From: Candidatus Agathobaculum pullistercoris
Lineage (GTDB): Bacteria; Bacillota; Clostridia; Oscillospirales; Butyricicoccaceae
DNA: 64,000 nucleotides
NCBI GenBank assembly: GCA_019114345.1
Contig: DXFS01000019.1
Span: forward strand, 6,989-70,988
Reading direction: 5' to 3'
Positions 13,347-62,613 of the stretch are shown here, piece by piece. How positions within the stretch are numbered: the first letter of the stretch is position 1; every line of letters starts with the position of its first letter. The position numbers and the translations under genes were made by a program. The notes under the pieces are model-generated. The model saw nothing but the letters and a program-made list of their open reading frames with translations, was not told the DNA's origin and searched no databases.

Positions 13347-15239
13347 TTATTGAAGCGGAAGGGCAAAAGTGATCTGGAAACGGCCTGTCTCCGTCTCAAT
13401 ACGGCTGAAGCCGCCGGCCTGCTTCAAGATGCGATCAATGATTTTCAGACCATAGCCATGTGGTGCGAGCGGGCCGCGTTGTTTGGCCGGCCCGGTCTTT
13501 TCGTCCAATGGCATGCTGTTGGCACAGCAAAAAATAAAGAAGCCTTCTTTGACCCGGAGATCCAGGCGGATGAACCGGTCGCCGGACTGGGTATTCCGCG
13601 CAGCACGGACAGCATTATCCATCACATTCATCACCAGGGAAGTGAGATCGGGATCGGGGAGCGGAAGCGAGGCCGGCGCGGCGGCGTGCACCACTTCCAC
13701 ACGGACCTGATCCCGGAGCGCTGCCTCAAGGGTTCCGTTCAGGATGATGTCCAGCATTTGGTTGCCGCAGCGGACAACCGGCGTGATCGACCGGCTCTGG
13801 GAAACGAGAGCGTCGACATACTCCAGCGCCGGCGTATATTCCTGCTTTCGCAGCAGGGTACGCAGCACGGTCAGATGGTTTCGCATGTCATGGCGCATTT
13901 CCATTGTCTGCTCGGTCTGGATCCGCAGGGTATTATAACTGGCGCGTGCAAACTGCTCTTTGGCAAGCAGTATGGTCGTCTCTGAACGTCGGCGTACCAG
14001 GTTTTTAACGGTCTGCGCTATGACGGGAACCAGAACTGCAATAAAATACAGAGGAAGCAGCCAGACCAGAAGCGAAAGCGCAGTGGCATGTGCTGCGGTA
14101 TAGCGCAGTGGAAGCGCATACTTCTCGGGCAGGAGCTGTGTGCCGAAAAACAGGTACAAAGCGGAAAGCACGGTGCCGGCCAATATGATTAAGCAGAACT
14201 GGCGATGAAACGGCGAACCGCGATGCCAGGCCGGCATGGCAAGCAGAAAAGCCAGAAGAAGGGCGGAAAGTGTTGCATTGGCGCAGAGCTGCACATGGAT
14301 ATTCCCCTGGTATTCAGATATAGTGCTGAAAGAAACAATGGCAACCTGCAGTGCCGTTATGACAAACATCGCGGCGCGCAGGCGGCCGGTATGCTGGCAG
14401 GTAAGGAAGGCAAGCAGCAGGGCTGCTGAGGAATAGAGACACAGTGCGGTCAGATCAACCGGCAGGATGCCGAAATAGTTGCTGAAAAAAGGCGCCTGCA
14501 GGATCAGGCGGCTCATCATATTGAATGCGAGCAATGCAAGCAGCAGCAGGCTGGCATCCAGGCGGTTATAGTATACATTCCACAGAAATACCATCAGAAT
14601 AAAAATGCCCAGTGCAAACAAAAGCGCCGCCGGGATCAGGTGCCGTGCCGTTTGCGCGATCAGCTCGCTCTCGTAGGCATAGCCGCAGTACAGCGTGACA
14701 TCCGCCGGAAATACATCGGCATCCGAACCGGGTGCATCACTTCCGGCGGCGCTGGTTGACTGGGCAATGGTAAGTGTTCTTCCCTGATAGGCGGCGGGGA
14801 GGGACACCACCAGAGGATCGCTGCGATCGAGTGCAAGCATGGGGAGTGTGAAATATCCGATCCGGTTATCCAGTTCCGGACAATCGGTATAGATCAGCTC
14901 GTCATCAAGGAAAATGCTGAAGGTCCGGTTGGCAGCTCCAATACGCAGTGTGGGGCTGTCAAGCTTTTCGGTCAGCCGGCGGGAAAAATAAAAGGTCTGC
15001 CCAGGATAGTCCAGCCCGGAATAGCCACCGTAGCCGGTAGGGGTCAGCTTGGTGATGTTGCCCTCCGTGCAGGTGTATACCGTCCATCCCTTGTCGCCTT
15101 GCCAGGGCTGCCCATCTTCACCGAGGATGGAAAGGTCGTAAGAGTCGTCCTGCATGGGAGAAATATACAGGAGCAGCACGGGAGAAAAGGCGGACAATAT
15201 GATCAGCACGCACAGCACGGCAAACAGTTTCTTTTTCAA
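13347..15239 (-). CDS. membrane sensor histidine kinase, AgrC/VirS-like GHKL type, with large extracellular domain
   Basis: TTG start after GGAGG; extracellular region then ~7 TMs; RHDMRNHL H-box, NVMDNAV N-box, HGYGL G-box. Confidence 0.88.
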   Translation of the reverse strand: MKKKLFAVLCVLIILSAFSPVLLLYISPMQDDSYDLSILGEDGQPWQGDKGWTVYTCTEGNITKLTPTGYGGYSGLDYPGQTFYFSRRLTEKLDSPTLRIGAANRTFSIFLDDELIYTDCPELDNRIGYFTLPMLALDRSDPLVVSLPAAYQGRTLTIAQSTSAAGSDAPGSDADVFPADVTLYCGYAYESELIAQTARHLIPAALLFALGIFILMVFLWNVYYNRLDASLLLLALLAFNMMSRLILQAPFFSNYFGILPVDLTALCLYSSAALLLAFLTCQHTGRLRAAMFVITALQVAIVSFSTISEYQGNIHVQLCANATLSALLLAFLLAMPAWHRGSPFHRQFCLIILAGTVLSALYLFFGTQLLPEKYALPLRYTAAHATALSLLVWLLPLYFIAVLVPVIAQTVKNLVRRRSETTILLAKEQFARASYNTLRIQTEQTMEMRHDMRNHLTVLRTLLRKQEYTPALEYVDALVSQSRSITPVVRCGNQMLDIILNGTLEAALRDQVRVEVVHAAAPASLPLPDPDLTSLVMNVMDNAVRAARNTQSGDRFIRLDLRVKEGFFIFCCANSMPLDEKTGPAKQRGPLAPHGYGLKIIDRILKQAGGFSRIETETGRFQITFALPLQ

Positions 15240-15427
15240 AGCGGAATTACCTCCGGAAATGCGGGATGAACCAGGATGGGAAGAAGCGCCGCGTAAACAA
15301 ACGGGCTGTACAGGAGATACATTGGCAGGTTGCCGTTGGCTGCACGGAACAAGGCGAAGCCTCCGCACAAACAGCGGAGGCTTGCCGCGCAACGGCGAAC
15401 CGATATGGGATCGGACGCAGATTTGTT

Positions 15428-15838
15428 TTACACGAGTTTTTGCAGGGTCAGAATATTTTTTCCGTCCTTATACTCATATTTTACCGTATCCATCAGACGC
15501 TTGACCATGAAGATCCCGAGCCCGCCGATCCGGCGTTCCTCCGCCGGGAGGGTAGTATCCGGCTCAGCATTTTTCAGCGGATCATAGGGTTTGCCGGAAT
15601 CGAGAAATTCGATTGTGATCTGAGGCTGTCCCTTTGTGCTGATCTGGCACCGGATGGTTGCATCGCCCACATCAGGGCGGTAAGCATAGTTGGCAATGTT
15701 GACAAAAATTTCTTCCACAGCAATGGCGATCTGATTGCAGATCTTGGGAGGGCAGCTGATCTGGTCGAGCTCCGCCTGCACAAATTGCAGCACCGTATCG
15801 AGCTGTTCCGTCAGTGCTGGTACGGTGATTGTTTTCAT
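15428..15838 (-). CDS. anti-sigma factor / Ser kinase, RsbW/SpoIIAB-like
   Basis: AVEEIFVNIANYAY, DSGKPYDP, GGLGIFMV. Confidence 0.92.
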   Translation of the reverse strand: MKTITVPALTEQLDTVLQFVQAELDQISCPPKICNQIAIAVEEIFVNIANYAYRPDVGDATIRCQISTKGQPQITIEFLDSGKPYDPLKNAEPDTTLPAEERRIGGLGIFMVKRLMDTVKYEYKDGKNILTLQKLV

Positions 15839-17310
15839 GACTGCTCCTCCTTGGATTGAGACGGCATGTATGCACGGAACTGCAGGCCCAGCATGGTAAT
15901 ATCATCCGCCTGCGGCGCGCCGGCAGCGAAGAGGTCTACCTGAGACTTGAGGTATGGCAGCAGCTGATCAGGAGCAAGCCCCTGCGCTGCGTCTGAATTG
16001 AGCACAGCTTCCAGGCGTTTTTCACCGTAAAGCTCAAGCGCGGCGTTAGTCGCCTCGGTCACGCCGTCCGTATACAGGAACAGGCAGTCGCCCGGTTTCA
16101 GGGTCACCTGAAATTCTTTGTAGCGCATGCCTTCCATACCAGCGAGCACAAAGCCCGGGCGCAGCTTGAGCCATTCAAACCGGCCGCCCGACTGCTGGAT
16201 CAGCGGTGGATTATGCCCTGCGTTGGCATAGGTCAGTACACCGGTCCGCAGGTCCAGAATGCCGAGGTAGGCTGTGACGAACAGCCCTTCGCCGTTGTTT
16301 TCACACAGCTGTTCGTTGGCGCGGGTGAAAATTTCAGCCGGGGAAAGGCTGGACTGCGCCTGATTGCGGATAATGGTCTTTGCGATAACCATAAACAGCG
16401 CGGCCGGAACGCCCTTGCCCGATACGTCTGCAATGACGACGGCAAGATGGGTCTGGTCGATCATGAAGAAGTCGTAAAAGTCGCCGCCGACCTCTTTGGC
16501 AGGGTCCATGGTTGCGTAGACGTCAAATTCGCTCCGGTCCGGGAAAGCCGGAAAAATGTTGGGCAGCATATCCCGCTGGATATTGCTGGCAACATTGAGC
16601 TCAGCCTCGGTTTTGAGCGCGCGGGAGGACCAAAGCGCGGTGGAGAAGATCTCATAATACAGGATGACAAACACCGAGCACATAATGAGGTAGAAAATGA
16701 TGAAGTACACGCGTGTGTCCGGAAGGCCGGGCAGGATGCCGAGCGTATTGGTCAGCCGGTTGACAATGGCAAAAGCAATGAAACAGTAGACCGGGATCGG
16801 CACATAACTTTTCAGCTGTTTGCCCAGCACGGAAATAACCTGCTGCACGATGTGGCTGACAAAGTGGCGGTAGGCAAAGAACATCACGGCGAACCAAAAA
16901 GCCTTGATGCACAGGAAGATGCCGATCGTGCGCATGTTATAGGGGTTCGAGGTGTTGTCGATAAAACTGAGCGTGGTGCCGCAGAAGAAGAACGTGGTTA
17001 CATTGGCGATCAATGCGCCCATGACCGAGGTGAACACCCGCGCTGCACGTTCATCTGAATAAAGCACCATGGCTGCAGCCGGCACCAGCACCAGCAGGCT
17101 GAGCAGGTTCAGGTTATCGTCAGTAATGTTGAAGGAATAGCTGACTGCGCAGACCGCAAAGTGCAGAATGACAAACGGCAGCCAGCCCAAAAAGGTCTGC
17201 CACTTGCTCTTCCGCATCGTGAGTGTGCTGTTGGTGAGCAGGGCCGCTACCCAGAATGAAAGATTGTTTGCCAGTGACCACAACAGAGTCACGGAAAGTT
17301 CAACTTGCAT
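15835..17310 (-). CDS. membrane-bound PP2C/SpoIIE-family phosphatase (RsbU-like)
   Basis: ~6 TMs then EVGGDFYDFF, ADVSGKG, NAGHNPP, YTDGVTEA, DDIT; metal-binding Asp residues intact. Confidence 0.93.
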   Translation of the reverse strand: MQVELSVTLLWSLANNLSFWVAALLTNSTLTMRKSKWQTFLGWLPFVILHFAVCAVSYSFNITDDNLNLLSLLVLVPAAAMVLYSDERAARVFTSVMGALIANVTTFFFCGTTLSFIDNTSNPYNMRTIGIFLCIKAFWFAVMFFAYRHFVSHIVQQVISVLGKQLKSYVPIPVYCFIAFAIVNRLTNTLGILPGLPDTRVYFIIFYLIMCSVFVILYYEIFSTALWSSRALKTEAELNVASNIQRDMLPNIFPAFPDRSEFDVYATMDPAKEVGGDFYDFFMIDQTHLAVVIADVSGKGVPAALFMVIAKTIIRNQAQSSLSPAEIFTRANEQLCENNGEGLFVTAYLGILDLRTGVLTYANAGHNPPLIQQSGGRFEWLKLRPGFVLAGMEGMRYKEFQVTLKPGDCLFLYTDGVTEATNAALELYGEKRLEAVLNSDAAQGLAPDQLLPYLKSQVDLFAAGAPQADDITMLGLQFRAYMPSQSKEEQS

Positions 17311-17340
17311 GGTTGATTCCTCCTTTTATGGGGAGATGCT

Positions 17341-20300
17341 TTACTGGAATGCGCCCAGCGTATCCAGTCCGGTCAGGTATGTGGAAAGGTATTCATCCGA
17401 AATTTCGGGCCAGAGGAAGCCCTCCTGCTCGAGCGCACGAATAGAGAAGCCGCTTTCACAAGGCGTCTCGATCAGGTGACGCCCGCCGGTCACGCGGGTC
17501 AGGAAACCGTCAAGCGCGCCGCTGAATGACGGATCTTCGGCAGCATGCAGCATGAATTTATCAAAATCTTCGTCTTCCATCGTACGAACCGGATATCCCA
17601 GCGCGGAAATGTGTGTGAGCAGCTTGCTGACCGGCAGGTCGTTGCTGTCAAAAATATGGAATACCGTATATTCCTCAGCACTGCCCGCCAGGCGGCAGAT
17701 CGCCCGGGCGACCGCGTCGACCGGAGAGAAATTGATCCAGCTGCGTGCCAAAGATTGCGGGCAGCGGCCTGTCCGCACAATGGACTGCAGCAGCTTGGTA
17801 AAGCCGTTAGTGGCCTGGTTCATCTGGAATTCTCCGTCTGTGATGCGTCCCTGCAGGTTGCCGACGCGCATGATCTTGGCGCGCAAGCCGCGGGCAATCT
17901 CGAGCAGGATCAGTTTTTCAGCAGTGAATTTGCTTTCCAGATAATCGTTGGACAGATCCTGGCGGACCCACAGGCGCTGTTCACTCAGGGATACGCCGAT
18001 CTCCGCCATCTCGCGCTCGATAAAGCCGCCGACGCTCAGCGTAGAGATGTGAACCAGTGCGGCGTCATGCTTTTTGCAGAATGCAATCACATTGCGAACA
18101 CCGTCCACATTGGTCTGCCGGATCCGGTTGCCGACGCCGAAATGGCTGACATCCGCTGCGCAGTGGATGACGGTATCAATTTTGACGCCATCCGGCAGGC
18201 TGACGATTTCGTCCCGGATCAGATCGCCGTCGACAGCGAACAGGCGCTGTCCGAACGCTTCGGCAAAATTATTTTCAAAGTAGTAGAAGAGTGAGCCCTT
18301 GAGACGCTTTTCAGGCGTCAGATTATTTTTGGGACGCACCATGCAGTAAATTTTGTTGTAGCCTGTGGTGAGCAGCTCATACAGCACATGGATGCCGAGG
18401 AATCCGGTCGCGCCGGTGAGCAGTACTGTGCCAAGCGGCTGCAGGCCTTTGCGGTAGTTCCGGTTATGGCAGAGCGTGTCCCGCAGGATGGCGGCTTCTT
18501 TCGGGGTGCAGAGCTGTCCGCTTCCGGCAGGAAGGGACGGTCCGCCGTGCGGCGCTGCATCCTGATCGACGCACTGCACCAGATCGCGTACAGTGGGATG
18601 GTCAAAGACCTGCCCGTATTCCAGGTCAAACTCTTCATGTTTGGCCAGCAGCACGATTTGCGCTGCCTGAAGCGATGTGCCGCCGAGATCGAAAAAGCTG
18701 TCAGTTGCACCGATCTCATCTTCAGGTATTTTCAGCACCTGCGAGAAGATGCGGCACATAGCCCGCTCACGTGCATTGCGCGGCGGGATATAGGTGCGCT
18801 CTACCTGGATCGCCTGGTTGGCCAGCGCACGCTTGTCGATCTTGCCGTTTGAGGTGTGTGGCAGATCGGTCATGTAGACGAACAGATCGGGCACCATATA
18901 GCGCGTCAGGAAGCCGCCGGCATACTGCTTCAGTTCGTCCGCTTCGCGTGGTTCAGCAGCAGAATAGAAGCAGCACAGGTGCTCGCGGCCATCGATCAGA
19001 CGGACCAGTACCGCGCACTGGCGGATACCGGGGAAGGATTCGATGCAGCGCTCGACCTCCTTGAGCTCGATGCGCAGGCCGCGCAGTTTGACCTGCTCGT
19101 CGTTGCGGCCGCAGTAGGCGAGGTTACCGTCCGGCAGGGCATAGCCATAATCGCCGGTGAGGTATACGCGGTCGCTGACCGGGCCGTCGCGCAGATCGAT
19201 AAAACGTTCCGCAGTCAGGTCGGGACGGCCGAGATAACCGCGCGCCACGCCATAGCCCGCAACCGCGATCTCGCCGGTTGCGCCGGGCGGTACGATGCGA
19301 TGGTTTTTGTCGAGCAAATAGATCCGCGCCCCGGCAATGGTGGAACCGATGGTAATGTGTTCCCGGATGCGGCCGACTGTTGCGCCGATGGTGATCTCAG
19401 TCGGGCCGTAGCCATTGTACAGGCGTGCAGAAGTTGCCTTGTGCAATGCATCCAGCAGCGGCTGGGTAAACGCCTCGCCGGCAGCGAGGACAATATCTAC
19501 GCCGCGCATCGCCTCGCGGAAGGAAGGCTCTTCCAGATAAGCAAGCAGGCGGGAAGGCGTGCAGTGCAGGATATTGGCATCGTTCTCTGTGATATAGCGG
19601 GCAAGCGCATCCGGATTGTTCATACCGTCCTCGTCCGCAAATACAACAGGCACGCCGTTAAGCAGGGTGGAAAACAGCTCAAACATGGAGATGTCAAAGC
19701 AGATCGAACCGACGGCGACGATCCCCCTGCCGTTAGCGCAGATATCACGGTTGAATTCGTTATTGTCCGGCTGCATGAAGTTGACGATGCCGCGGTGCTC
19801 GATCATCACGCCTTTGGGCTTGCCGGTCGTGCCCGAGGTATAGATGACATAGCACAGCCAGTCCTGGCCGACTGCGGGCAGGGGGCTGTCCGGCGTCTGC
19901 GGCGGGTCAAACAGCGGTCCGGGAGCGATGACCGGACAGCCGGCATCCGGGATGTCCGCGTCCGTGATCAGCAGGCCTGCTTTGCTGTCCGTCAGGATGA
20001 AGCGGATGCGTTCTTCGGGATAGGAACCGTCAATGGGAACATAGGCTGCGCCGGCCTTGAGAATGCCGAGCAGCATCACAGGAAGCGCGGTAGTGCGCGG
20101 CATCAGAAAAGCAACATAGGACTGCGGCTTTACACCGGCAGCGATCAGGTTGCGTGCGACACGGTCGGACACCTCGTCCAATTCCTGGAAGGTATAGCTT
20201 GCCCCCTTGCCGGACAGGGCGCGCCGATCCGGGTGCTTTGCCGCCTGCGCGCGGAAACGGCTGATAATGGTCGCTTCCGGATCGACCGGCAGTACCGGGC

Positions 20301-21603
20301 CGGAGAGCAGCGCGCGCTGGCAGAGCTTGTCCTCGTCAGATAGCAACTCAATCATCCGGCAGGGCTGGGTGCAGCCGGCAATCCCCTGATCCAGAATGGT
20401 GCACAGCATTTGCGCAGTCTGTGCGATCTCGTGAGGGGTGTAGTACGCTGCCCGGTAATCCAGCTGGAAACGGTAATCGCCGTTTCCGCCCCAGTCAAGT
20501 ATATGGAGGGTGAGCAGGTTGGTCATTGCACCGCCAAAGTGCATCGCATACCGCACGGGAAGCCCATGAAGCGGCAGTGCAAAATTCTGATAGGACAGTG
20601 TAAAATGCGACAGCGTCCCCGCCGCACCTTTCCGGGACAGGTCGCCCATGATCTCGGACAGGCCATATCTTTTGTGCGCTGCGGCGAGACGGTTCTGCAC
20701 CTGTACCTCCTGGCACAGGGCGGCAAAGCTGGTCTCCGGTGTGATGTGCAGGCGGACAGGCACTGCCAGCGTATACATGCCCGCGGCATTGCGGTCCATA
20801 GCCGTATCGCGGTTCAGCCGCGGGGTGATGATGATGACGTCCTCCGTGCCCAGCATACGCGACAGATAAACCGCATAGGCGGCAAAAAATACGCAGTACG
20901 GCGTCACATTCTGTTGTGCCGCGAAAGCGCGCAGCTGACTGGAACGTGCACTGCCGACGGAATGCGACGACCATGCAATCCGGTGGCCGGGCTGATCGGG
21001 CATCGGATGCGGGAGACGGCCCGGCTCGGCGCCGCCGAGATAGTCCTGCCAGAAAAGGCGGTCGGTTGAGCGCTCCTCCTCGTTGGAGCTATCCGCTGCG
21101 GCGCGTGACAGGAAGGAGTCAAAATCAGCAGGCTCTTCACCTGCACAGAGTGCAAGCAGGCGGTCATACACAGAGGTGAAGCCATAGCCGTCCGCAACCA
21201 AATGATGCACGCGCAGCAGCAGCGCGGTCTTGCCGGGGAGTGTGTAAATGACCGCGTTGAACAGGGGGCTGTCATAAAGGTCGAAGCAGAAGCGTGCCTG
21301 CTCATCAAATACGGCGGCAAGTTCATCCTCTCCCGAAAGCGGGACGACCCGGCACGCGAAAGGCGTGTACCCGGCGTCATACTGCAGAGGTCCGTCCTTG
21401 GCACGTGTCACACGGATACGGAGCGTTTCAGTGGTCTCTACCAGCCTGTTGAGCGCGCGGTTAAGCAGCACGGGGTCGGGCGCGTTATCAAAGGTCAGCA
21501 GTACGGATTCTGTGTACAGTGCTTTGTCCGGACAGCTTTCGCTTGCAAGCCAGATCTGGTACTGCGGCCGTGTCAACGGGATACAGTTGTGATGAATGTC
21601 CAT
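17341..21603 (-). CDS. single-module NRPS, C-A-T-thioester reductase
   Basis: C: HHLVADG; A: YTSGTTGKPKG, NGYGPTE, LTGD, QVKLRGLRIEL, NGKID; T: FFDLGGTSL; R: TGATGFLG, HCAADV, YLESK. Confidence 0.95.
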   Translation of the reverse strand: MDIHHNCIPLTRPQYQIWLASESCPDKALYTESVLLTFDNAPDPVLLNRALNRLVETTETLRIRVTRAKDGPLQYDAGYTPFACRVVPLSGEDELAAVFDEQARFCFDLYDSPLFNAVIYTLPGKTALLLRVHHLVADGYGFTSVYDRLLALCAGEEPADFDSFLSRAAADSSNEEERSTDRLFWQDYLGGAEPGRLPHPMPDQPGHRIAWSSHSVGSARSSQLRAFAAQQNVTPYCVFFAAYAVYLSRMLGTEDVIIITPRLNRDTAMDRNAAGMYTLAVPVRLHITPETSFAALCQEVQVQNRLAAAHKRYGLSEIMGDLSRKGAAGTLSHFTLSYQNFALPLHGLPVRYAMHFGGAMTNLLTLHILDWGGNGDYRFQLDYRAAYYTPHEIAQTAQMLCTILDQGIAGCTQPCRMIELLSDEDKLCQRALLSGPVLPVDPEATIISRFRAQAAKHPDRRALSGKGASYTFQELDEVSDRVARNLIAAGVKPQSYVAFLMPRTTALPVMLLGILKAGAAYVPIDGSYPEERIRFILTDSKAGLLITDADIPDAGCPVIAPGPLFDPPQTPDSPLPAVGQDWLCYVIYTSGTTGKPKGVMIEHRGIVNFMQPDNNEFNRDICANGRGIVAVGSICFDISMFELFSTLLNGVPVVFADEDGMNNPDALARYITENDANILHCTPSRLLAYLEEPSFREAMRGVDIVLAAGEAFTQPLLDALHKATSARLYNGYGPTEITIGATVGRIREHITIGSTIAGARIYLLDKNHRIVPPGATGEIAVAGYGVARGYLGRPDLTAERFIDLRDGPVSDRVYLTGDYGYALPDGNLAYCGRNDEQVKLRGLRIELKEVERCIESFPGIRQCAVLVRLIDGREHLCCFYSAAEPREADELKQYAGGFLTRYMVPDLFVYMTDLPHTSNGKIDKRALANQAIQVERTYIPPRNARERAMCRIFSQVLKIPEDEIGATDSFFDLGGTSLQAAQIVLLAKHEEFDLEYGQVFDHPTVRDLVQCVDQDAAPHGGPSLPAGSGQLCTPKEAAILRDTLCHNRNYRKGLQPLGTVLLTGATGFLGIHVLYELLTTGYNKIYCMVRPKNNLTPEKRLKGSLFYYFENNFAEAFGQRLFAVDGDLIRDEIVSLPDGVKIDTVIHCAADVSHFGVGNRIRQTNVDGVRNVIAFCKKHDAALVHISTLSVGGFIEREMAEIGVSLSEQRLWVRQDLSNDYLESKFTAEKLILLEIARGLRAKIMRVGNLQGRITDGEFQMNQATNGFTKLLQSIVRTGRCPQSLARSWINFSPVDAVARAICRLAGSAEEYTVFHIFDSNDLPVSKLLTHISALGYPVRTMEDEDFDKFMLHAAEDPSFSGALDGFLTRVTGGRHLIETPCESGFSIRALEQEGFLWPEISDEYLSTYLTGLDTLGAFQ

Positions 21604-21696
21604 AAGCGTGAACTCTCCAATCTATGAAACTCGGATAGCGGAACGGCTGCCCGTTGCGCAGACAGCCGTCAATAAACCCGACAGCATACAATCCAG

Positions 21697-22002
21697 TCAG
21701 GCGGATTCAATTGTCAGGATATCGGAAAAACCCGTCATGTCAAAAACCTCCATGATCTCATCTGAAACATGGCGCAAAGTCATGGTCTGGTTGCCGGCAA
21801 CGACTGCCTTCTGGCCGGTCAGAAGAGAGCGCAGGCCGGCGCTGCTGACGTATGCCAGTTCAGAGAAGTCGAGCATAATGTTTTTCCCGCTTTTGATCTC
21901 GCTGAGCAGTGTGTCCTGAAAATCCGGAGCGGTGGTAGTGTCCAGTCGTCCGTTCAGTTTGAGGACAATCTGGCCGTTTTCCGTACTTTTGCTGATGTTC
22001 AT
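21697..22002 (-). CDS. STAS anti-anti-sigma factor (RsbV/SpoIIAA-like)
   Basis: GRLDTTTAP, LDFSELAYVSSAGLR, EVFDMTGF. Confidence 0.93.
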   Translation of the reverse strand: MNISKSTENGQIVLKLNGRLDTTTAPDFQDTLLSEIKSGKNIMLDFSELAYVSSAGLRSLLTGQKAVVAGNQTMTLRHVSDEIMEVFDMTGFSDILTIESA

Positions 22003-22034
22003 GGCAATGATAACTCCTTTTCAAATGATTGATG

Positions 22035-22499: not shown

Positions 22500-22524
22500 G
22501 GTTCTACCCCCTTTGCCAGCCTAC

Positions 22525-22570
22525 AGTATACTGGAACAAGGACGACAAAAGGACAACAAACGACTTACAA
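22525..22570 (-). promoter_or_regulatory. -10 box with upstream 11-bp direct repeats
   Basis: minus-strand TATACT at 22525-22530; AAGGACGACAA (22538) and AAGGACAACAA (22549) on plus strand. Confidence 0.55.
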
Positions 22571-24621: not shown

Positions 24622-24767
24622 GGTCGGGCCTCGCAGAATGATAGAGTCGGCAGTGGATTGACGAAAAGAAAAATTCCTGTTCACGACAGAAAATGTCACT
24701 TTGTGCGCAAACTATGGTAAGATAAAAAAACAGGAGGAAAGCGATAAGCAACGGGGTTTGATGCAGC

Positions 24768-25490: not shown

Positions 25491-25491
25491 C

Positions 25492-26235: not shown

Positions 26236-26249
26236 AATCATATAAGGAA

Positions 26250-26286
26250 GAGGGGAACGACCCGGACGGGCCGTTCCCTTTTTTTA
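26250..26286 (+). terminator. intrinsic terminator
   Basis: AGGGGAACG-ACCCGGACGGGC-CGTTCCCT followed by a T-tract. Confidence 0.75.
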
Positions 26287-35233: not shown

Positions 35234-35238
35234 GACTG

Positions 35239-51663: not shown

Positions 51664-51667
51664 GGCT

Positions 51668-54262: not shown

Positions 54263-54285
54263 GGGCGGACAGGAGGCCTGCATAA

Positions 54286-54705
54286 ATGGGATTGACACAG
54301 CTTGATATCATCCGGAAACAGATCGAGTCCGCTGCGAAAAACCGCGCCGCGGGCGAGGCGGCAAAGCTGCGGCGGAAAACCAGCCTGATCGGGGAGATCA
54401 GCCGGTTGACCGGCAAGGCAAACCGAACGATTGACCAGGCGGGGCGCGAAGCGGTGCGCTGGCGCGCAGGCCGCCGGCCGGATGTTCTGGAAGATGAGAC
54501 GGAATGGGATGAGCCGGATGAAGGCGCGGAGGCACCGCACATCTGTGCGGACGGCTATGTGCGCCGCTCGCCCGAGCAGCCGCTGTATACGCCGCCGGAC
54601 TACCGGCGCAGGCTGCTGCGCCGGGCCGCGGGAATTGCAGTAGCCGTGCTGCTGGCGCTGGCTGTGCTGTGGCTGCTGGTCCATTATTCCGTTCTAAGCA
54701 TTTGA
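54286..54705 (+). CDS. small protein with C-terminal membrane anchor
   Basis: AGGAGG RBS; GYVRRSP.QP; one C-terminal TM. Confidence 0.72.
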   Translation: MGLTQLDIIRKQIESAAKNRAAGEAAKLRRKTSLIGEISRLTGKANRTIDQAGREAVRWRAGRRPDVLEDETEWDEPDEGAEAPHICADGYVRRSPEQPLYTPPDYRRRLLRRAAGIAVAVLLALAVLWLLVHYSVLSI

Positions 54706-54751
54706 GGCACATACCGCGTAAGCGGTCCATATATCTGGGGAGGAACACGTT

Positions 54752-57130
54752 TTGCTGAGCCATTTGCTGACACAACTGCTGCGGTCCTTCGGAATTTTTT
54801 TCCGTACGATCCGTGCGTTTTTTACCCGCCGGCTGGTGGGTCTGTGGGCGCGTCTCAAGCGGCTCACCAATTTTTCGCGCCAGGCCACAAAGGTGGCTGC
54901 GGATTCGCTGCAGTCCGCGGCGGCAATCGCAAAAAAGCCGACCTCGCGCGGCGATTACGTGGAAACCGGGCGATTGTTCATCTCCAAAAAGTTTTTGCTC
55001 ACGATTGCGGTCGGCATTATCGTGCTGGCGCTGCTGGCATATTTTGTGGCATGGCCGTTTATCCTGAGCCATTTCTTCACCGCGCATTTTTATGTGGAGG
55101 ATTCCCGTATTGATAACTGGACCGGGCGCGTGGTTGTTTATTCGGATGAGGCAAAAACCATCCCGCTCTACGAGGGCAGGCTGGAGGACGGCCTGCTGCA
55201 GGGTCAGGGAAAGGAATACGATGAAACCGGGCTGCTCACCTATGAGGGGGCATTTGTAGACGGCCAGCGGGAAGGAAAGGGTACTGCCTATGAGGCGGGG
55301 ATCCTTTTGTACGAAGGCGACTTTGCCGCCGGGGTTTATGAGGGGCAGGGTACGCTGTATCAGGACGGTGTGCTGCTGTACGAAGGCAGCTTTTCCGGCG
55401 GTGTGCAGTCCGGTGAGGGCACGGAGTATTACGGAAGCGGCAGCGTGCGCTACAAGGGAGCGTTCGCAGACGGCCTGTATGAGGGCCAGGGAACGGAATA
55501 CGACGAGCAGGGCGCCAAAGTGTATGAAGGCAGCTTTTCGCAGGGGCTTTACAGCGGCGAAGGCAGCCTGTATCCGGCGGAAAACGAACGGATCGACGCG
55601 ACTTTTGCAGAGGGCGAACCGGATGGGGCGATCCAGTGGTATAAGTCGGACAAGCTGTATTATGACGGCGAGGCAGACGGCATTACGCCTTCGGGCTTCG
55701 GCACCCTGTATACCCAGAGCGGCAAGACTGCCTATGTGGGGCAGATGGCGAACGGCACGGTCGACGGCACCTGGCTGGTGACGCTGACCGCAGATGAGTT
55801 CCGCGAGGCGCTTGGGGAAAGCAGCACCATTGACTATGACGATGTGAACGGCGGCTTTGTGATTTACTCACCATCCATCGGCCTGTCCGCGCTGTGCAGC
55901 TATCAGACGGCGGACAGTGATCCGGCGGTACATACGGTCTATCTGTCTGCGCCGCGCGAATCCCGTTTTGCGCTGCTGCCGGGACAGGATGGGGTGTCGC
56001 TGACAGACTGGCCGAACCCCACTGTGAGCACACGGAGATACAGCGAGACCGACGGCGTGAACCTGGACTCCGGCACATATTCCAGCGAGGTATATGAGCT
56101 GGACGGCTGCCGCGCCGAGGTGCTGCGTAAAAATGATGAAGCGGTTCTGCTCAGCTGGGCGCTGACCAGCGCCATGCCGGACTCGGATGTAACGAGCACC
56201 TCGCAGGAGGCGCAGGCGGCCGAGGAAGAGCAGAAACAACTGGAGGAATTCCTGGAATCCCTCAGCAATATGTCCGGCACAGGAGCAACACAGACCACAT
56301 CGGAAAATCCCTATTACGGGCAAACCGCAGTGTCAGATGCGCTGGCCGGCTGTATGAACACGCAGGAGGCGGAGGCAGCGGTCGATGCACTGCTGACCTA
56401 TTGGGAGAATGCAGAGAGACGGCTTGCACTGGAGAACAATCTAACGCGCACGCAGGAACTGCTGCGCGATGCGCAGCGTGCCGAGGCAAGCGGCACGGGC
56501 AGCGCGGATGCGGTGGCTGAGCTGGAGGCCCAGCAGAATACGCTGAACAGCCAGATCAACAGCTGCATTGTTGAAATGTCCAAGGCTTCCATGGAGGCTG
56601 CAGATGCCGGCGTGAGCGATCCGTCCCTGTATGCATTAAACGAACTCTCTGTTCTGTTTAATCCGATGACGCTGGATACGGATGATCTGGCGTTGGTTGC
56701 GACGGCCTATGCGCAGGCGCTCGCAGGGGAAAGCGGGACGCAGACCGGCACGGGCGATGCAGCATCCGGCGATGAAACCGAGGCGGAATCGTCCGTGGAC
56801 GGGGAGGCGATCCGGCTGTCCCTGCAGACCTCGCTGGCCGACCTTGCTGCTGCATATAACGAAGTGCAGAGCGCGATTACTGCGTATGAGCAGGCGGCAG
56901 ATGCCGCATCGTCTGCAGCCGGGGCGTATTCGATGGGCACCGGAACGAAGGCGGACTGGTATGATGCCCTGTCCGCGCGCACGGACAGCCAGGTTTCCAT
57001 CTATGCTGCGCTGCGCGCATTTACCAGCCAGGTCAACGCGCTTAACAGCATGACCGGCGGCTGGGTATCGCGCACGCAGGGGTGGATGACAGATGCGCTG
57101 CTGCCGCTTTACAACACGGCCGCGCAATAA
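54752..57130 (+). CDS. membrane-anchored MORN-repeat protein with TolC/OEP-like helical C-terminus
   Basis: one TM; ~8 YEGxFxxGxxxGxG repeats; two helical segments resembling OEP repeats. Confidence 0.8.
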   Translation: MLSHLLTQLLRSFGIFFRTIRAFFTRRLVGLWARLKRLTNFSRQATKVAADSLQSAAAIAKKPTSRGDYVETGRLFISKKFLLTIAVGIIVLALLAYFVAWPFILSHFFTAHFYVEDSRIDNWTGRVVVYSDEAKTIPLYEGRLEDGLLQGQGKEYDETGLLTYEGAFVDGQREGKGTAYEAGILLYEGDFAAGVYEGQGTLYQDGVLLYEGSFSGGVQSGEGTEYYGSGSVRYKGAFADGLYEGQGTEYDEQGAKVYEGSFSQGLYSGEGSLYPAENERIDATFAEGEPDGAIQWYKSDKLYYDGEADGITPSGFGTLYTQSGKTAYVGQMANGTVDGTWLVTLTADEFREALGESSTIDYDDVNGGFVIYSPSIGLSALCSYQTADSDPAVHTVYLSAPRESRFALLPGQDGVSLTDWPNPTVSTRRYSETDGVNLDSGTYSSEVYELDGCRAEVLRKNDEAVLLSWALTSAMPDSDVTSTSQEAQAAEEEQKQLEEFLESLSNMSGTGATQTTSENPYYGQTAVSDALAGCMNTQEAEAAVDALLTYWENAERRLALENNLTRTQELLRDAQRAEASGTGSADAVAELEAQQNTLNSQINSCIVEMSKASMEAADAGVSDPSLYALNELSVLFNPMTLDTDDLALVATAYAQALAGESGTQTGTGDAASGDETEAESSVDGEAIRLSLQTSLADLAAAYNEVQSAITAYEQAADAASSAAGAYSMGTGTKADWYDALSARTDSQVSIYAALRAFTSQVNALNSMTGGWVSRTQGWMTDALLPLYNTAAQ

Positions 57131-57144: not shown

Positions 57145-58464
57145 ATGGGCTTGGCTGATTACACCGCCATTGTCGAGGCAGGCAACGCAGTGGTAGACCT
57201 GCTGCGCGACAACCTGACCCCTGAGCCGCTGGGCAACCGCGAACTGATCGCGCTGTGCTCCCCGCATGAGAGCGAAAACAACCAGCTGACGCTGTATCTG
57301 TATCACATCGAGGAAGAAAACCAGAACATGACAAGCGGTTACTACCAGCTGGACCAGACGACCCAGCGCCGCGCAGCAGCGCAGTTTACGCTGCGCTATC
57401 TGGTGACCGCACATTCCAAGGCGCCGGTGCAGCTCCGGCAGGCTGACCAGCACCGCATTGTCGGCGCGGCAATCCAGACCCTGCGCGACAATCCGGTCAT
57501 GCCACAGCAGTACCTTGCGGGTTCGCTTGCGGAGGAGCATGCGCAGCTGCATCTGGCGGTGGAAAAGGTGCCGCTCGAGCAGCTGCTCAAGATCTGGAAC
57601 AACACGTCAAAGGAATATAAGCTGTCCTTTGTGCTGATGGTCACCGGCGTGACGATTGCCTCCAAGCGGAAGCGTCAGGTCACGCGCATCACAGACTTCG
57701 AGGTCTCGGTCAATCCGGAGACACACGAGAGCCTGGTGCAGCGCAGCGTCAGCGCCGTGCTGCGGCTGCGGGACGGCTTCCTGGGCACGCCGATCGAAAA
57801 CGGCGGCGCGCTGTTCCGTATCGACGGGATTCCCAGCCAGCCGCAGGCCAAGCCGGGCGGGTACCGGGTTTGGACCGGCCTCGCGGAAGGACGGCACACC
57901 CTGTCGGTCAGCATGCGCGGTTTCCAGACCGAGGAACTCATCGTGGATATCCGGCCCGGTCAGGTGTGGGAAGGCAGCGCCGACCTCAAGCCCGGGCTGG
58001 GCTATCCGTTTGGAAAGGATGCGGTCACCGTGCGCCTGACCGTGACGCGCGGCGGGCAGCCGTTGGCGGACCAGCCGGTATGGCTGGCCGTGGCTGACCC
58101 TGCACCGCTCAAGCTTGCGCAGGATAAGGCGGAAAAGGGTGCGCAGACGCTGCGCCTGTTCTGCAGGGGAGAGGCGAGCGCGCTGCCCGTGCCGGGCGTA
58201 TTCCTGCTGGAGGAAGGGAAAGCGCCCGAGCTGGTGACACTGCAAGCGGTTGAAGGAGAGGACGGCCGGCTCGCCGTGCCGCTGGCGCATGCGCACGCGC
58301 GCGGCAAGGCACTCCTGCCTGCACAGCAGTACCGGACGGACGGGCAGGGCCGCATCAGCGTGATGCTGCGCGAGGCGGTAAGGCTCGCCGTGTTCTGCAA
58401 TGGCAGCATACAATATGCCGAACCCGGGACAGAAGGGGAGCAGACGATCACCCTTCGGTTTTGA
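57145..58464 (+). CDS. cap/tail terminator Afp16/Pvc16 (DUF4255) with C-terminal extension
   Basis: LTLYLYHIEE, LRYLVTAH, LRDNP, IW...YKLS, then ~250 aa beta-rich extension. Confidence 0.88.
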   Translation: MGLADYTAIVEAGNAVVDLLRDNLTPEPLGNRELIALCSPHESENNQLTLYLYHIEEENQNMTSGYYQLDQTTQRRAAAQFTLRYLVTAHSKAPVQLRQADQHRIVGAAIQTLRDNPVMPQQYLAGSLAEEHAQLHLAVEKVPLEQLLKIWNNTSKEYKLSFVLMVTGVTIASKRKRQVTRITDFEVSVNPETHESLVQRSVSAVLRLRDGFLGTPIENGGALFRIDGIPSQPQAKPGGYRVWTGLAEGRHTLSVSMRGFQTEELIVDIRPGQVWEGSADLKPGLGYPFGKDAVTVRLTVTRGGQPLADQPVWLAVADPAPLKLAQDKAEKGAQTLRLFCRGEASALPVPGVFLLEEGKAPELVTLQAVEGEDGRLAVPLAHAHARGKALLPAQQYRTDGQGRISVMLREAVRLAVFCNGSIQYAEPGTEGEQTITLRF

Positions 58465-58479: not shown

Positions 58480-58857
58480 ATGGCAAATCCAGTAGTCAAC
58501 ACAGCGGTATGCACCTGTTCGTTCGGCACCCTGCCGATGGTGCTGCCCGTCACCTCACAGCAGACTGTCACAATGTGCGGCATGACGGCAGCGACCATTA
58601 TGGATAACAAATGCACGACCTTTGGCATGTGTTCCTGCCCGGCAAACCCGGCAGTCGCCGCAGCGACCGCCGCAGCGATGGGCGTGCTCACCCCAAGCGC
58701 CTGCATCCCGGTGACCCCGGCGCCGTGGGCGCCCGGCGTGCCGACCGTGACGGTCTGCGGCAAGCTGCTGCTCAATAACACCAGCAAGCTGATGTGCCAG
58801 TACGGCGGCGTGATCCAGGTGAGCATGACGCCGGCGATGACGATCAAAACGCCGTAA
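58480..58857 (+). CDS. PAAR-like spike tip (DUF4280)
   Basis: CSFG, FGMC...NPAVAAATAAAMGVLTP..CIP...W.PG, LMCQYGGVI. Confidence 0.93.
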   Translation: MANPVVNTAVCTCSFGTLPMVLPVTSQQTVTMCGMTAATIMDNKCTTFGMCSCPANPAVAAATAAAMGVLTPSACIPVTPAPWAPGVPTVTVCGKLLLNNTSKLMCQYGGVIQVSMTPAMTIKTP

Positions 58858-58873
58858 AAGAGGAGGGGACGCA

Positions 58874-61030
58874 ATGCGGGCGGAGGAGATCCGGCCGGTC
58901 GATCTGACGACCGGCGCAGGCTATGACAGCCAGTGGGCGCTGATGCGCGACCTGTTCGTCTGGCTCGACCTGCGGCTGTACTATTTCTATGCGCACCATC
59001 AATGGCTCGGCCCGTCGAGCGAGATGAAAAATATGCTCGGGCTGGTCGTGACGCGCGAGGAATTTGAGCACCAGCTGGCCAAATCCGCCCAGATGGGGCT
59101 GGAGGAGGAGCTGGAACCGGAGGAAAGCGCCCAGCTTGGGGAGGCGCAGGCGGCGATTGCCCTGCGGCTGGGACGCACGGGCGATGCGGATATCCCGGTG
59201 CTGCACCTGTTCCAGCGATGCGGGCTGGATGCGTTCGAGCAGAACTGCGTCATACTTGCGTATGCGGCGGTGCTCGACCGCAAGTATGAAAAGCTGCTCG
59301 CCTACCTGCAGGACGACATGACCCGCAAAAGCCCGGGCACTGCGCTGGCGGTACAGCTGTTTATGCCGAAGGGCGGCAATATGGAGCAGTATCTGGCACG
59401 GTTCACCCGTCAGGGACGGTTTTCCCGCCTGTTTGAGCGCGAAGCGCTTGCACGGGGCGAGCTCGTGCTGCACCCGCTGACGCTGGAATACCTTTCGGGC
59501 GGGACGATCGCAGACCGCCAGGGGATGACGGTTTTTGACGGCGCAGTGCGCCGTCCGGACGGCCCGCTCATCGTGCAGGGGGACGCCGCGCGGCGGCTGG
59601 ACCGCATGATGGAGGAGCAGCTGCCCTGTGTGCTCTGCCTGTCCGGCGGGGCGGGCAGCGGCAAACGCTTCCAGATCGAGCACCTGCTTGCACGGCAGAA
59701 AAAGCGCGGCATATTCGCCGATCTGGAAGGGGAGGGCTGGCGCGAGCGCGCCGGGCAGGCGGCGCTTGCAGCCTGCCTGCTGGACGCCTACTTGTGCTTT
59801 TACCATCTGGACAGGGAAAATGAAGCGGGCGATCGGATCGCCGCGCCGCAGCAGATGGTGGATGTGCTCTGCGGCATGGAAACCGGAAAAGACCGGTTAT
59901 TCCTGCTTTCCCGCCTGCCGGTGCGGGCGCGGGTGCAGCAGCTGACTGTGGATTTGGAACTGCCGCCGCTCACGGAAAGCGAGCGGCTTGAGCTGTTCCG
60001 AACCCATCTGCGGGGCAGCCGTCTCGCCCCCGATGTGACAGCCGAAGAGCTGGCGGCGAAATTCCATTTTTCGCCGCAGCAGATCCGGCAGGCCTGCCGG
60101 CAGGCGGCGGGCATGGCAGAGCTGGACGGGAACGATATGCTGGACGGCGTGCAGCTGCATGCCGCCTGCTACCGGCAGGTGGTGCACAAGCTGGGCGACC
60201 TGGCGCACCGCGTACCGGCGGCGTACACCTGGGACGACGTGGTGATGCCCGCCGCGCAGAAGCGGCTGATGCAGCAGGCCTGCGGGCATATCCGGTACCA
60301 GTACCGCGTGTATCATCAGTGGGGATTTGAAAAAAAGGTCGCCTATGGCCGCGGCCTGTCCATCCTGTTCGCGGGCGCGCCCGGCACGGGCAAAACCATG
60401 TGTGCGCAGGTGATCGCGCGCCAGCTCAACATGGAGATGTATAAGATCAATATTTCGCAGATCGTCAGCAAATACATCGGCGAGACCGAGAAAAACCTGC
60501 AGGCGGTGTTTGCGGAGGCGAAAAACTCCAATTGCATTCTGTTTTTTGACGAATGTGACGCGCTGTTCGGCAAGCGCAGCGAGGTAAAGGATTCGCACGA
60601 CCGCAATGCAAACGTCGAGGTCGCGTATCTGCTGCAGCAGATCGAGGAATACGACGGGGTGTGCATCCTGGCGACCAACCTGATCGGCAATATCGATGAG
60701 GCGTTCATGCGGCGCATCACCTATGTGGTGCATTTCCCGTTCCCGGACCGCCGCATGCGCGAGGATATTTACCGGCGCATGATACCGCCCGCCGCCCCGC
60801 TGGCTGAGGATATCGACTGGGGCTTCCTGGCGGAGAAGTTCGAGCTGTCCGGCGGACATATCAAAAATATCGTGCTGTCGGCCGCATTCATGGCGGCAGG
60901 CGAAAACAGCCCGATCGGCATGCGGCACCTGCTGCGCGCCGCGGTGGGCGAAATGAAGAAAAATGAGATCGTTGTCGTGCGGGAGGAGCTCCGGGAGTAT
61001 GCCGACCTGCTGGAGGACGAGGGGGAATAG
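58874..61030 (+). CDS. AAA+ ATPase (Afp15-like)
   Basis: YLQDD, degenerate first P-loop GGAGSGKR; GAPGTGKT, SKYIGETEKNL, FFDECDALFGKRSEVKDSHDR.AN, LSGGHIKN. Confidence 0.95.
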   Translation: MRAEEIRPVDLTTGAGYDSQWALMRDLFVWLDLRLYYFYAHHQWLGPSSEMKNMLGLVVTREEFEHQLAKSAQMGLEEELEPEESAQLGEAQAAIALRLGRTGDADIPVLHLFQRCGLDAFEQNCVILAYAAVLDRKYEKLLAYLQDDMTRKSPGTALAVQLFMPKGGNMEQYLARFTRQGRFSRLFEREALARGELVLHPLTLEYLSGGTIADRQGMTVFDGAVRRPDGPLIVQGDAARRLDRMMEEQLPCVLCLSGGAGSGKRFQIEHLLARQKKRGIFADLEGEGWRERAGQAALAACLLDAYLCFYHLDRENEAGDRIAAPQQMVDVLCGMETGKDRLFLLSRLPVRARVQQLTVDLELPPLTESERLELFRTHLRGSRLAPDVTAEELAAKFHFSPQQIRQACRQAAGMAELDGNDMLDGVQLHAACYRQVVHKLGDLAHRVPAAYTWDDVVMPAAQKRLMQQACGHIRYQYRVYHQWGFEKKVAYGRGLSILFAGAPGTGKTMCAQVIARQLNMEMYKINISQIVSKYIGETEKNLQAVFAEAKNSNCILFFDECDALFGKRSEVKDSHDRNANVEVAYLLQQIEEYDGVCILATNLIGNIDEAFMRRITYVVHFPFPDRRMREDIYRRMIPPAAPLAEDIDWGFLAEKFELSGGHIKNIVLSAAFMAAGENSPIGMRHLLRAAVGEMKKNEIVVVREELREYADLLEDEGE

Positions 61031-61053: not shown

Positions 61054-62571
61054 ATGAAAAAGCAACAACGCAATACACTGGCCGGCAGGCTGGCGCCGCG
61101 GTGCGTGCTGTCGGTCCTGGCGCTGACGGCGGTGGATATCCTGCTGGCGGCTGCCCTGCGGCCGGCCGACGGGATGATCGCCGTATGCATTGGAATGGTG
61201 GCTGCGGGAGCTGCGCTGGCAGCGTGGTGGCTGCACCTGCTCCGGGGCGGGGAGGACGGCGGGCTGGACAGTTTGCGCGCGGCGGTCGAGCGCTGTGCTG
61301 CGGATGAGGCGGACAGACTCCCGTCTGAACTGACCGGACGCACCGATGAGATCGGCGCGCTGGCACAGGCTGTCCAGCGCCTTGCGGAACGGGAGGACGG
61401 ACGGCTGGAGCAGGCCTGCCTTTCCGCCGCACGGGAGGCGGAAGAGCGCGCGAGGCGCGGCATGGCGGAGGAGATTTGCCGGTCTGCGCTGCCGCAGGTG
61501 CTGCCGGATATCCCCAGCCGCGCGAACTTTGAGGTAAACGGGCTGATCGAACAGGGTACAGGCAGGGACAGCCGGTTCTACGATTATTTCTTTATCGACC
61601 CCGGCCTGCTGTGTATCGTGCTGGGGCAGACGCCGGGCGGCGGCGTGGCGGAGGCGCTGTTCATGGTCATCGCACAGACGACCATCCGCAGCCGGCTGCG
61701 TCAGGGCCGGTCACTCGAAGAGACGATGGCGGATGTGAACACCCAGCTTTACGATCTGGGAAATCAGTTCAGCCTGAATGCGCTGGTTGCAACGCTCGGC
61801 ACGGCGGACGGCCGGTTCACCTATGTCAACGCAGGGCAGCAGCAGCCGCTGCTCATGCGCAATGAGGACCGCTATGAATGGCTGGAATCGCCGGTCTATG
61901 CGCCGCTGGGCATGAATGAGAATGTATCCTACCGCTCGCAGGAGCTGCGCTTTAAGCAGGGTGACCGGATTTTCCTGCATACGGCGGGGCTGGCGAACCT
62001 GCAGGACCGGGACGGCGAGGCCTATGGCGGGCAGCAGCTGCGCGCGGACCTGAACACCAGCCGCAGCAAAAACCTGGATGGCGGGGAGCTGCTGCGCTTT
62101 GTTGCCGATAAGGCGCTGGTGCACTGCGGCTCCAGCACGGAAAACGGTGGCTTTGCCATGCTCACGCTGCTGTTCTGCAAGGGCGATAAGGAACTGGCCC
62201 ACTGCGATGTGCCCGCGCGGCCGGAGTATGCATCTGAGGTGACGGAGTTCCTCAAAAAGCAGTTCGAGGACAACGGCATCGACAAGCGCCACTATGCGCG
62301 CGAAGCGGTCGTGGTGGATGAAGTGTTTGCGCTCTGCTGCCGCAAGGCGGAGCCGGACAGCCATGTGATGGTGGAGTGCGGCGTTGCGCCGGACGCCCAG
62401 ATGGTGAACATCCGGGTGACCGCCGTGCTGGGCGGCGTGGACCCGATGGAAAGCACGGATGCTGATCCGACGGAAAACGCGGTCAGCTTTATCCGGGACA
62501 ACGCAGATTACATCACTTTCAAACCGGGAGAGGAGCGGGACACGATCACGATCGTGTGCTTCCTGAGCTGA
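61054..62571 (+). CDS. 2-TM/HAMP-like + degenerate PP2C (SpoIIE) + degenerate anti-sigma HATPase fusion
   Basis: FYDYFFID, ALFMVIAQTTIR, YVNAG; catalytic motifs replaced; C-terminal VVDEVF...DPM domain. Confidence 0.82.
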   Translation: MKKQQRNTLAGRLAPRCVLSVLALTAVDILLAAALRPADGMIAVCIGMVAAGAALAAWWLHLLRGGEDGGLDSLRAAVERCAADEADRLPSELTGRTDEIGALAQAVQRLAEREDGRLEQACLSAAREAEERARRGMAEEICRSALPQVLPDIPSRANFEVNGLIEQGTGRDSRFYDYFFIDPGLLCIVLGQTPGGGVAEALFMVIAQTTIRSRLRQGRSLEETMADVNTQLYDLGNQFSLNALVATLGTADGRFTYVNAGQQQPLLMRNEDRYEWLESPVYAPLGMNENVSYRSQELRFKQGDRIFLHTAGLANLQDRDGEAYGGQQLRADLNTSRSKNLDGGELLRFVADKALVHCGSSTENGGFAMLTLLFCKGDKELAHCDVPARPEYASEVTEFLKKQFEDNGIDKRHYAREAVVVDEVFALCCRKAEPDSHVMVECGVAPDAQMVNIRVTAVLGGVDPMESTDADPTENAVSFIRDNADYITFKPGEERDTITIVCFLS

Positions 62572-62583
62572 ACAGATTATGCT

Positions 62584-62613
62584 GTGCGCCGCATTATGCG
62601 GCGCATATTTTTT
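62584..62613 (+). terminator. intrinsic terminator closing the CIS operon
   Basis: TGCGCCGCA-TTA-TGCGGCGCA followed by TATTTTTT. Confidence 0.8.

Follow-up and report, generated by a model that had tools for sequence, protein, structure and literature searches.

How does a contractile injection system (CIS) act in a Gram-positive gut commensal: as a particle freed by cell lysis, or mounted on the envelope of the cell that makes it? The question is raised by a stretch of 64,000 nt (the window, whose positions are used throughout) of contig DXFS01000019.1 (GCA_019114345.1) from Candidatus Agathobaculum pullistercoris, in which the CIS proper spans 32433-61030 and is complete and under selection, as judged from Pfam and NCBIfam scans and from dN/dS. 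Genes were called by these scans of the window proteins, together with PHROG, PDB and fold-model searches; counts out of 17 refer to a clade set of related loci, each read over 40-75 kb; G-, L- and C-numbers are working labels for genomes, loci and contigs. An earlier note on this DNA had proposed that the CIS might be attached to the envelope. This is plausible, and candidate parts were found in four membrane-related genes between cis13 and cis16 that the note had not listed, while the docking itself is deduced from genes. Tentatively, we favour an envelope-docked CIS with outward delivery of DUF4157 effectors, both its docking and its regulation being predicted. Docking is favoured because the nearest solved sheaths belong to systems that act from within the cell, no lysis genes are linked to the locus and the membrane module is conserved.

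We compared the sheath (Cis2, 32433-34232, plus strand) with solved structures and found that the best PDB match is 9EZM (E 3e-114), from a membrane-bound haloarchaeal type VI secretion system (T6SS). The next solved sheaths are those of the Streptomyces CIS (8BKY and 8BL4), which also gives the best solved baseplate match, while PVC and Afp score about half. Both the haloarchaeal and the Streptomyces systems have been shown to act from inside the cell (PMC11566945; 10.1101/2024.06.25.600559). The likeness to the T6SS-like clade IIa system of Halogeometricum borinquense (9EZM) extends to two cis11 genes and a conserved membrane gene in the cluster, and PMC11566945, which reports the two cis11 genes, names Bacillota as most closely related to the haloarchaeal system. 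The related sheath and the two cis11 genes agree with a putative place in clade IIa; the quick sheath tree covered Bacillota sheaths. The two systems differ in that the archaeal host has an S-layer and ours a peptidoglycan wall, that the archaeal anchor is a protein with six transmembrane (TM) helices whereas the module here comprises four genes and includes MORN and TolC-like domains, and that the tape-measure-like gene present here was not found in the archaeal system.

No lysis family (holin, endolysin) was matched in the locus or in the 132 scanned of 156 selected flank proteins. A PHROG 'endolysin' match in the locus was merely the LysM domain of Afp7. The locus scans matched none of the holin, endolysin, capsid, terminase, TssJLM and ClpV families that had been reported as lacking. 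By structure the gene set falls in the Afp/PVC class (with sheath, tube, VgrG, gp25, baseplate J, a Pvc16 cap and an AAA ATPase, but no capsid or terminase) and not in canonical T6SS subtype i: the sheath is single and of phage type, and TssJLM, ClpV and TssB/TssC gave no Pfam or NCBIfam match.

The membrane module (50935-57130) begins with a predicted pseudokinase (50935-51663, plus strand), whose model (pLDDT 92) has a generic Hanks-type protein-kinase fold (Z up to 13.9) and whose consensus carries no recognisable catalytic motifs; EssB, of the type VII secretion system (EssB/YukC), was not among the fold matches listed. Its homologues in divergent clades have a TM helix, and one also has a LysM domain. 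There follow, on the same strand, a receptor (51668-54262) in which four TM helices are predicted and which also has a HAMP domain and a domain like class III cyclases, the last matching at E 2e-14 with its metal-binding Asp positions substituted; a small single-TM protein (54286-54705); and a single-pass MORN protein (54752-57130) made of a basic N-terminal helix, a TM helix at residues 81-99, a MORN rod, a beta domain and a predicted C-terminal TolC/OEP fold. The receptor and MORN genes are present in 17/17 related loci, the pseudokinase gene in 16/17 and the small TM gene in 11/17; HAMP receptor and MORN genes also accompany divergent CIS clades whose baseplates share ~25% identity, and occur in Brevibacillus as well. 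Among 38 sheath-positive genomes, a receptor profile matched strongly in 28 (7 of them in the profile itself), weakly in three and not at all in seven, and the single strong match among 10 sheath-negative congeners was in a genome that proved to carry a CIS. Neighbouring module genes carry LysM, SLH and Cu-amine-oxidase-N domains.

Residues 525-781 of the MORN protein are predicted to form the two-repeat helical barrel of the TolC/OEP family (8ZAR, 4MT4, 5AZO; Z 13-16). The fold search of the model gave a best Z of 15.6 over 249 aligned residues (rmsd 3.6) and six further efflux channels at Z 13-15, with unrelated helical rows at 7.2 or below; the Pfam OEP match is weak (E 0.002). Unlike in TolC/OEP channels, the domain has ~260 residues, is all helical in the model (residues 525-792) with no outer-membrane beta-barrel strands, is fused to a membrane-anchored MORN rod and is accompanied in the locus by neither an HlyD nor an ABC partner; the host is not known to have an outer membrane. 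A profile of the domain found it in 18 loci, 14 of which are in the profile itself. In clade B, a separate OEP gene comes after the MORN gene (PF02321, E 2e-9, in the one clade B locus checked). In clade B (L027-L028, G024:C11:19240-23910), two secreted proteins are encoded after the MORN protein: an OEP protein of 686 aa and a coiled-coil protein of 863 aa without a known family. HlyD and ABC (C39 peptidase) genes adjoin the CIS in G170 (L171:12207-20000) and G099 (L135:16666-19195), and apparently in G180 (L175:15785-19966); exporters of this kind might, in some lineages, be partners of the TolC-like domain.

Taken together as a mechanism, the CIS would assemble in the cytoplasm, dock on the cell's own membrane through the four-gene module of its operon, and shoot DUF4157 effectors outward, into a cell in contact with its own. 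Cis13 (49126-50907, plus strand), for which no sequence match was found in PDB, has a median identity of 70% compared to 49-54% for the baseplate genes, and this unusually conserved protein may bind the membrane module in the manner of TssK, which binds the membrane complex of the T6SS; a likeness of this Cis13 type (eBAP3) to TssK is noted in PMC12923769. The MORN rod, together with the TolC-like domain, might cross the cell wall or brace it. The receptor, kinase and phosphatase, all enzyme-dead, could serve as scaffolds or triggers, and YbjN-type chaperones could load the effectors. A STAS-PP2C-RsbW switch and LytTR regulators may set expression or firing, with a non-ribosomal peptide synthetase (NRPS) as an optional input that would have taken the place of a MATE gene in one subclade. 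A bolder form, which we consider rather unlikely, is a T6SS-like weapon of gut Clostridia in which the MORN rod with a ring of TolC fold would span the peptidoglycan as a Gram-positive counterpart of TssJLM, enzyme-dead sensors would trigger firing on contact, and a sigma-less switch with exchangeable small-molecule inputs, either the product of an NRPS or a MATE transceptor, would arm the machine.

Several points weigh against envelope docking. In PMC12923769, eBAP3 is taken to be a tail fibre, with an An92 isolate among the examples. A fragment of eBAP3 from Paenibacillus is shown there to target PVC particles to cells of a human line, and the paper disputes a purely intracellular role in Bacillota. 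Free particles have such features as a tape-measure-like gene, a cap and Cis15, and lysis needs no linked genes, since the host has sporulation sigma factors and unlinked holins occur elsewhere in 3/5 genomes. The TolC-like domain is not universal, since the MORN proteins of L138, L159, L170, L175, L018 and L025 gave no match to it, and a TolC-like trimer is an unlikely channel for the needle because the lumen of a TolC trimer (~3.5 nm) is too narrow for a CIS tube (~7-8 nm). One genome (G063) keeps the machine with no DUF4157 gene in the stretch read. Lastly, the particle, its location and killing are predicted from genes.

Release by lysis is therefore to be weighed as a serious rival, although we regard it as somewhat unlikely. 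Here the CIS would be an ordinary extracellular CIS (eCIS), freed through sporulation, an autolysin or a prophage, Cis13 would be a fibre that binds a host or a microbe, and the products of the membrane genes would merely sense signals. The sporulation genes and unlinked holins suit it, as does the target-cell binding of the eBAP3 fragment (PMC12923769), and so does the full Afp/PVC-type set with its tape-measure-like gene; the core set, DUF4157 with HExxH, Pvc16 and Cis15 are indeed shared with eBAP3-bearing eCIS of this type, and Bacillota loci are catalogued as eCIS (PMC8213781, PMC12923769). On the other hand, no lysis genes are linked here, and the membrane module and partner switch are not described in the passages of these two papers. 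The membrane module stays within the structural operon across clades at ~25% baseplate identity, and the systems of the nearest solved sheaths work from within the cell. Receptor-binding proteins tend to diversify, unlike Cis13, which is more conserved than the baseplate.

A system acting from inside could also turn on its own producer. As in Streptomyces, it would dock on the membrane, fire into the cell's own envelope or cytoplasm and kill the producer under stress. The system of Streptomyces coelicolor with CisA (8BKY, 9GTP) provides the second-best sheath and the best baseplate match and comes from a Gram-positive host; its CisA crosses the membrane once, has a sensor-like domain on the outside and is encoded after the baseplate genes (10.1101/2024.06.25.600559), and the MORN protein has the same position and topology by hydropathy and model. 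Many stress-type sensors are also linked to our locus. The fold search of the outer end of the MORN protein gave MORN and TolC. The systems differ in that Cis13 is present here, that the outer domain is predicted to be MORN and TolC-like rather than solute-binding-like, and that the DUF4157 cargo is polymorphic; zero to at least four DUF4157 genes per locus, with unrelated C-termini, are a better fit to an arms race with other cells than to suicide. Moreover, multicellularity is not known in the hosts, and self-killing appears improbable.

We return to the putatively envelope-docked CIS and to what may control it. A membrane GHKL histidine kinase (HK1, 13347-15392; an accessory gene matched in 4/17 loci), an RsbW/SpoIIAB-like kinase (HATPase_c_2, 15428-15838), a membrane SpoIIE/PP2C phosphatase with 4/4 metal-binding Asp (15835-17310), the NRPS, a STAS anti-anti-sigma-like protein (21697-22002), a LytTR regulator (22035-22499), a response regulator (22565-23431) and a species-specific LytS-type histidine kinase (HK2, 23344-24699; 0/17 related loci) are all encoded on the minus strand (13347-24699). 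On the plus strand lie a pair of LytTR regulators (24768-26235, comprising 24768-25490 and 25414-26235), found beside the CIS in 13-14/17 loci, and an orphan receiver-domain protein (30048-30410). The five regulators claimed in the earlier note, namely these last three with 22035-22499 and 22565-23431, are thus present, and Pfam and NCBIfam confirm its DUF4157 protein, two kinases, STAS/PP2C/RsbW module and NRPS. The PP2C gene at the right end (61054-62571, plus strand) closes the operon in 16/17 loci and encodes a membrane HAMP-PP2C-HATPase fusion with 0/4 metal-binding Asp, a predicted pseudophosphatase; most right-type orthologues keep 0-2 of these residues, and most left-type copies keep four.

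The PP2C and anti-sigma paralogues at both ends had been read as a link between the switch and the CIS. In G087, G088 and G090 the genes run AAA, STAS, MATE-HATPase, dead PP2C, active PP2C and RsbW, and this contiguous cassette implies that the two ends here are one split cassette. In a divergent CIS clade (G011, G013, G015, G029, G028), STAS and RsbW come directly after cis12, and PP2C was seen wherever the stretch reaches. STAS is present in 9/17 related loci and an RsbW-like match in 10/17. When co-occurrence and synteny with the CIS were looked at as the earlier note had proposed, the cassette proved to be linked in part but also to occur CIS-free. No RsbW match was found in 12/28 sheath-positive family genomes, while 11/136 sheath-negative ones had a match; one of these 11 proved CIS-bearing, and six of 7 others fetched have a STAS, PP2C, RsbW cassette with no CIS genes in the stretch read. 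A Fisher test of RsbW against CIS (17/29 vs 10/135) gives p 4e-9, which is overstated because kin are not independent. An exclusive bond of the partner switch to the CIS is hence rejected, whereas a partner-switch link to the CIS is largely supported by these gene arrangements. One sheath-negative locus (L191, G205:C77) has HK2, response regulator, STAS, PP2C and RsbW together and is a possible source cassette for the left arm.

The switch resembles RsbU-RsbV-RsbW and SpoIIE-SpoIIAA-SpoIIAB in having an active membrane PP2C, a STAS protein and an anti-sigma-type Ser/Thr kinase in one operon, and differs in lacking a linked cognate sigma factor, in its dead PP2C-HATPase fusion partner and in the insertion of NRPS or MATE-HATPase. 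No sigma factor was matched on contig C81, which carries the CIS locus, in a genome that is 77% complete; SigBFG was best matched on C19, next to another STAS gene.

The NRPS (17341-21603, minus strand) is a single C-A-T-R module, that is, a reductase-ended enzyme whose C, A, T and R domains have intact catalytic motifs and which would be expected to make an aldehyde or alcohol. Gut clostridial NRPS of this ending make peptide aldehydes (Guo 2017, via PMC10794557); the ending and the gut Clostridia host are shared, while here there is a single module inside a signalling operon. Its dN/dS of 0.09 indicates purifying selection. Orthologues (64-100%) occur in 8/164 family genomes, all among the nine with a sheath of >=86%, and in 0/136 sheath-negative ones, so that 8/8 family genomes with an orthologue carry this CIS. 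However, seven NRPS-bearing loci form one clade in the quick sheath tree (100% support), implying one acquisition, and among 50 other CIS genomes four have an orthologue (all Butyricicoccus records) and 46 have nothing >34% over full length. The nine STAS-bearing loci have NRPS in two and MATE(-HATPase) in seven, never both. In G078, a second, non-orthologous reductase NRPS with three modules lies by STAS, PP2C and MATE on the CIS contig, but ~8 kb of housekeeping genes separate this module from the CIS regulators, and six other NRPS relatives have no such neighbours. A phosphopantetheinyl transferase gene is unlinked in 4/5 genomes and was not found in G000. An obligate NRPS-CIS link is rejected on this distribution, and the distribution and the MATE replacement together imply that the NRPS is dispensable for the CIS as a class; the sequences place it as tied to the switch in one lineage and not needed by the class. 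That an NRPS signal passes through the partner switch to control the CIS, the 49 kb forming one unit, is thus quite improbable, in spite of the position of the NRPS in the STAS-PP2C-RsbW operon and its exclusion of MATE, as the NRPS is confined to one subclade, MATE stands instead in 7/9 STAS loci, HK2 is found in 0/17, no sigma factor lies in the locus and the two halves are divergently transcribed.

The other structural genes lie on the plus strand, and all those that the earlier note had listed are present. A tube gene (gp19, 34268-34747) is followed by a tail-assembly chaperone (34874-35233) with a DUF6760 extension in the -1 frame (34874-35418 in all), where a frameshift is predicted: a slippery heptamer, T TTT TTG, stands at 35218-35224, at the end of the chaperone gene, and a lenient test found a slippery pattern in 77/84 homologues, so that a programmed frameshift like that of phage G/GT chaperones is likely. 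This frameshifted chaperone, two chaperone-like genes and one conserved unknown gene had also escaped the earlier list. Two more gp19 tube/initiator genes (35439-36386) bring the gp19 tube genes to three, and a long low-complexity protein of variable length (36377-39877) is called tape-measure-like from its position. Then come Afp7/LysM, a split VgrG and gp25 (39893-43023), the VgrG consisting of a GPD hub (40655-41755) and an OB-fold spike (41752-42549); two Cis11 (baseplate J) genes and Cis12 (43020-49129); the Cis16 (Pvc16) cap, fused to the next gene (57145-58464); and DUF4280 (PAAR-like) with the Cis15 AAA ATPase (58480-61030). The Cis16 fusion is shared with G023, and most other loci have two separate open reading frames.

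The putative effector (26877-29756, minus strand, with its start re-called at ATG 29756) is a DUF4157 (eCIS_core) protein with the HELSH motif, an instance of HExxH, and a variable C-terminal region that is helical and then Lys-rich and has few relatives (7 close homologues found). Its atlas matches are below 0.9, and an RTX region at 0.84 is a lead only. PMC8213781 ties DUF4157 to eCIS toxins, and related loci carry zero to four or more such genes with unrelated C-termini. A DUF4157 protein in another locus (L059:1503-3830) shows weak PI3/PI4-kinase-like similarity (E 0.005), which hints at a host-directed cargo. The small protein encoded after the effector (26304-26816, minus strand) has no family match and may be a chaperone or immunity protein, judging from sequence and position. 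On the plus strand follow a conserved 348-aa protein (30434-31480; 14/17 loci), which had no useful match in the atlas, PDB, Pfam or PHROG and whose fold is without known match, a low-complexity 138-aa protein (31467-31883) and a YbjN / type III secretion system chaperone-like protein (31870-32265; PF10722 match in 17/29 homologues). A reduced locus (G063:C4, L118-L120) keeps NRPS, core machine, receptor and MORN and has a short tape-measure region; no match was found in it for DUF4157, receiver, chaperone, 30434-31480 or pseudokinase.

We examined selection in a single genome pair, gene by gene, and found all 21 genes compared with G023 under purifying selection (dN/dS 0.04-0.25, and 0.41 for the tape-measure-like gene); gene order is identical in independent assemblies of the species. 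Against G023, dS is ~0.7-1.2 in the signalling half (13347-29756) and mostly 0.4-0.6 in the CIS half (30434-62571), a contrast that may reflect codon bias or a different history. The sheath was matched in 28/164 genomes of the family (Butyricicoccaceae), from whose Agathobaculum and Butyricicoccus records the nearest sheaths come, and at E 1e-40 or better in 11/300 other Bacillota genomes. A contig scan found at least 544 stretches with a relative, the best 79 of which span Oscillospiraceae, Lachnospiraceae, Christensenellaceae, Paenibacillus and Brevibacillus. In G028 (L187, L188), clade B CIS genes lie on two contigs and the sheath search gave no match; counts from the sheath only therefore underestimate prevalence. 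The lineage is common in animal gut Clostridia, whereas PMC8213781 describes eCIS as depleted in human-microbiome isolates.

As had been claimed, terminator-like hairpins with 11-bp stems bound the block, at 13307-13332 on the left and 62583-62607 on the right (plus strand; the right element is listed to 62613). Compared with shuffled sequence, the total number of terminators is close to chance in the left scan (20 vs 20.5) and exceeds it modestly in the right one (21 vs 13.3). From 32433 to 62571 all genes are on the plus strand with gaps of at most 205 bases and the hairpin at the end. The right flank is not the cbiT-like housekeeping gene previously suggested but an S-adenosylmethionine methyltransferase (41.6 bits vs a CbiT cut-off of 219), adjacent in G155 and not found in 3/5 relatives; genes flanking the CIS differ from genome to genome. 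At 1265-4772 and 8478-13194 lie ordinary genes: EamA, MBOAT and AlgX-like acyl-transfer genes, a trehalose-type phosphotransferase system, a hydrolase and a GntR regulator. Contigs from two chicken-gut RNA libraries gave 60 and 18 pieces on 29001-49000 and 28 and 37 on 9001-29000, and were not used as evidence (possible DNA carry-over).

Bacillota CIS are catalogued as eCIS. No account of the membrane module, the TolC-like domain or the linkage to the switch was found in the literature, the dbeCIS and eCIStem lists, which may list the loci, being outside its scope, and no Bacillota CIS with a demonstrated mode of action was found in the literature searched. The nearest characterised relative has been traced to Bacillota, and the lineage is common in gut Clostridia (28/164 family genomes) and present in cultured isolates (L099, L104, L068, L064), so that the question is testable now. 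If it is lysis-released, the CIS would still be an abundant, uncharacterised gut injector with polymorphic cargo. If it is envelope-docked, it would be a contact weapon for Gram-positive gut commensals and an example of needle mounting across a thick wall, and TolC-like proteins would gain a role in cells that lack an outer membrane.

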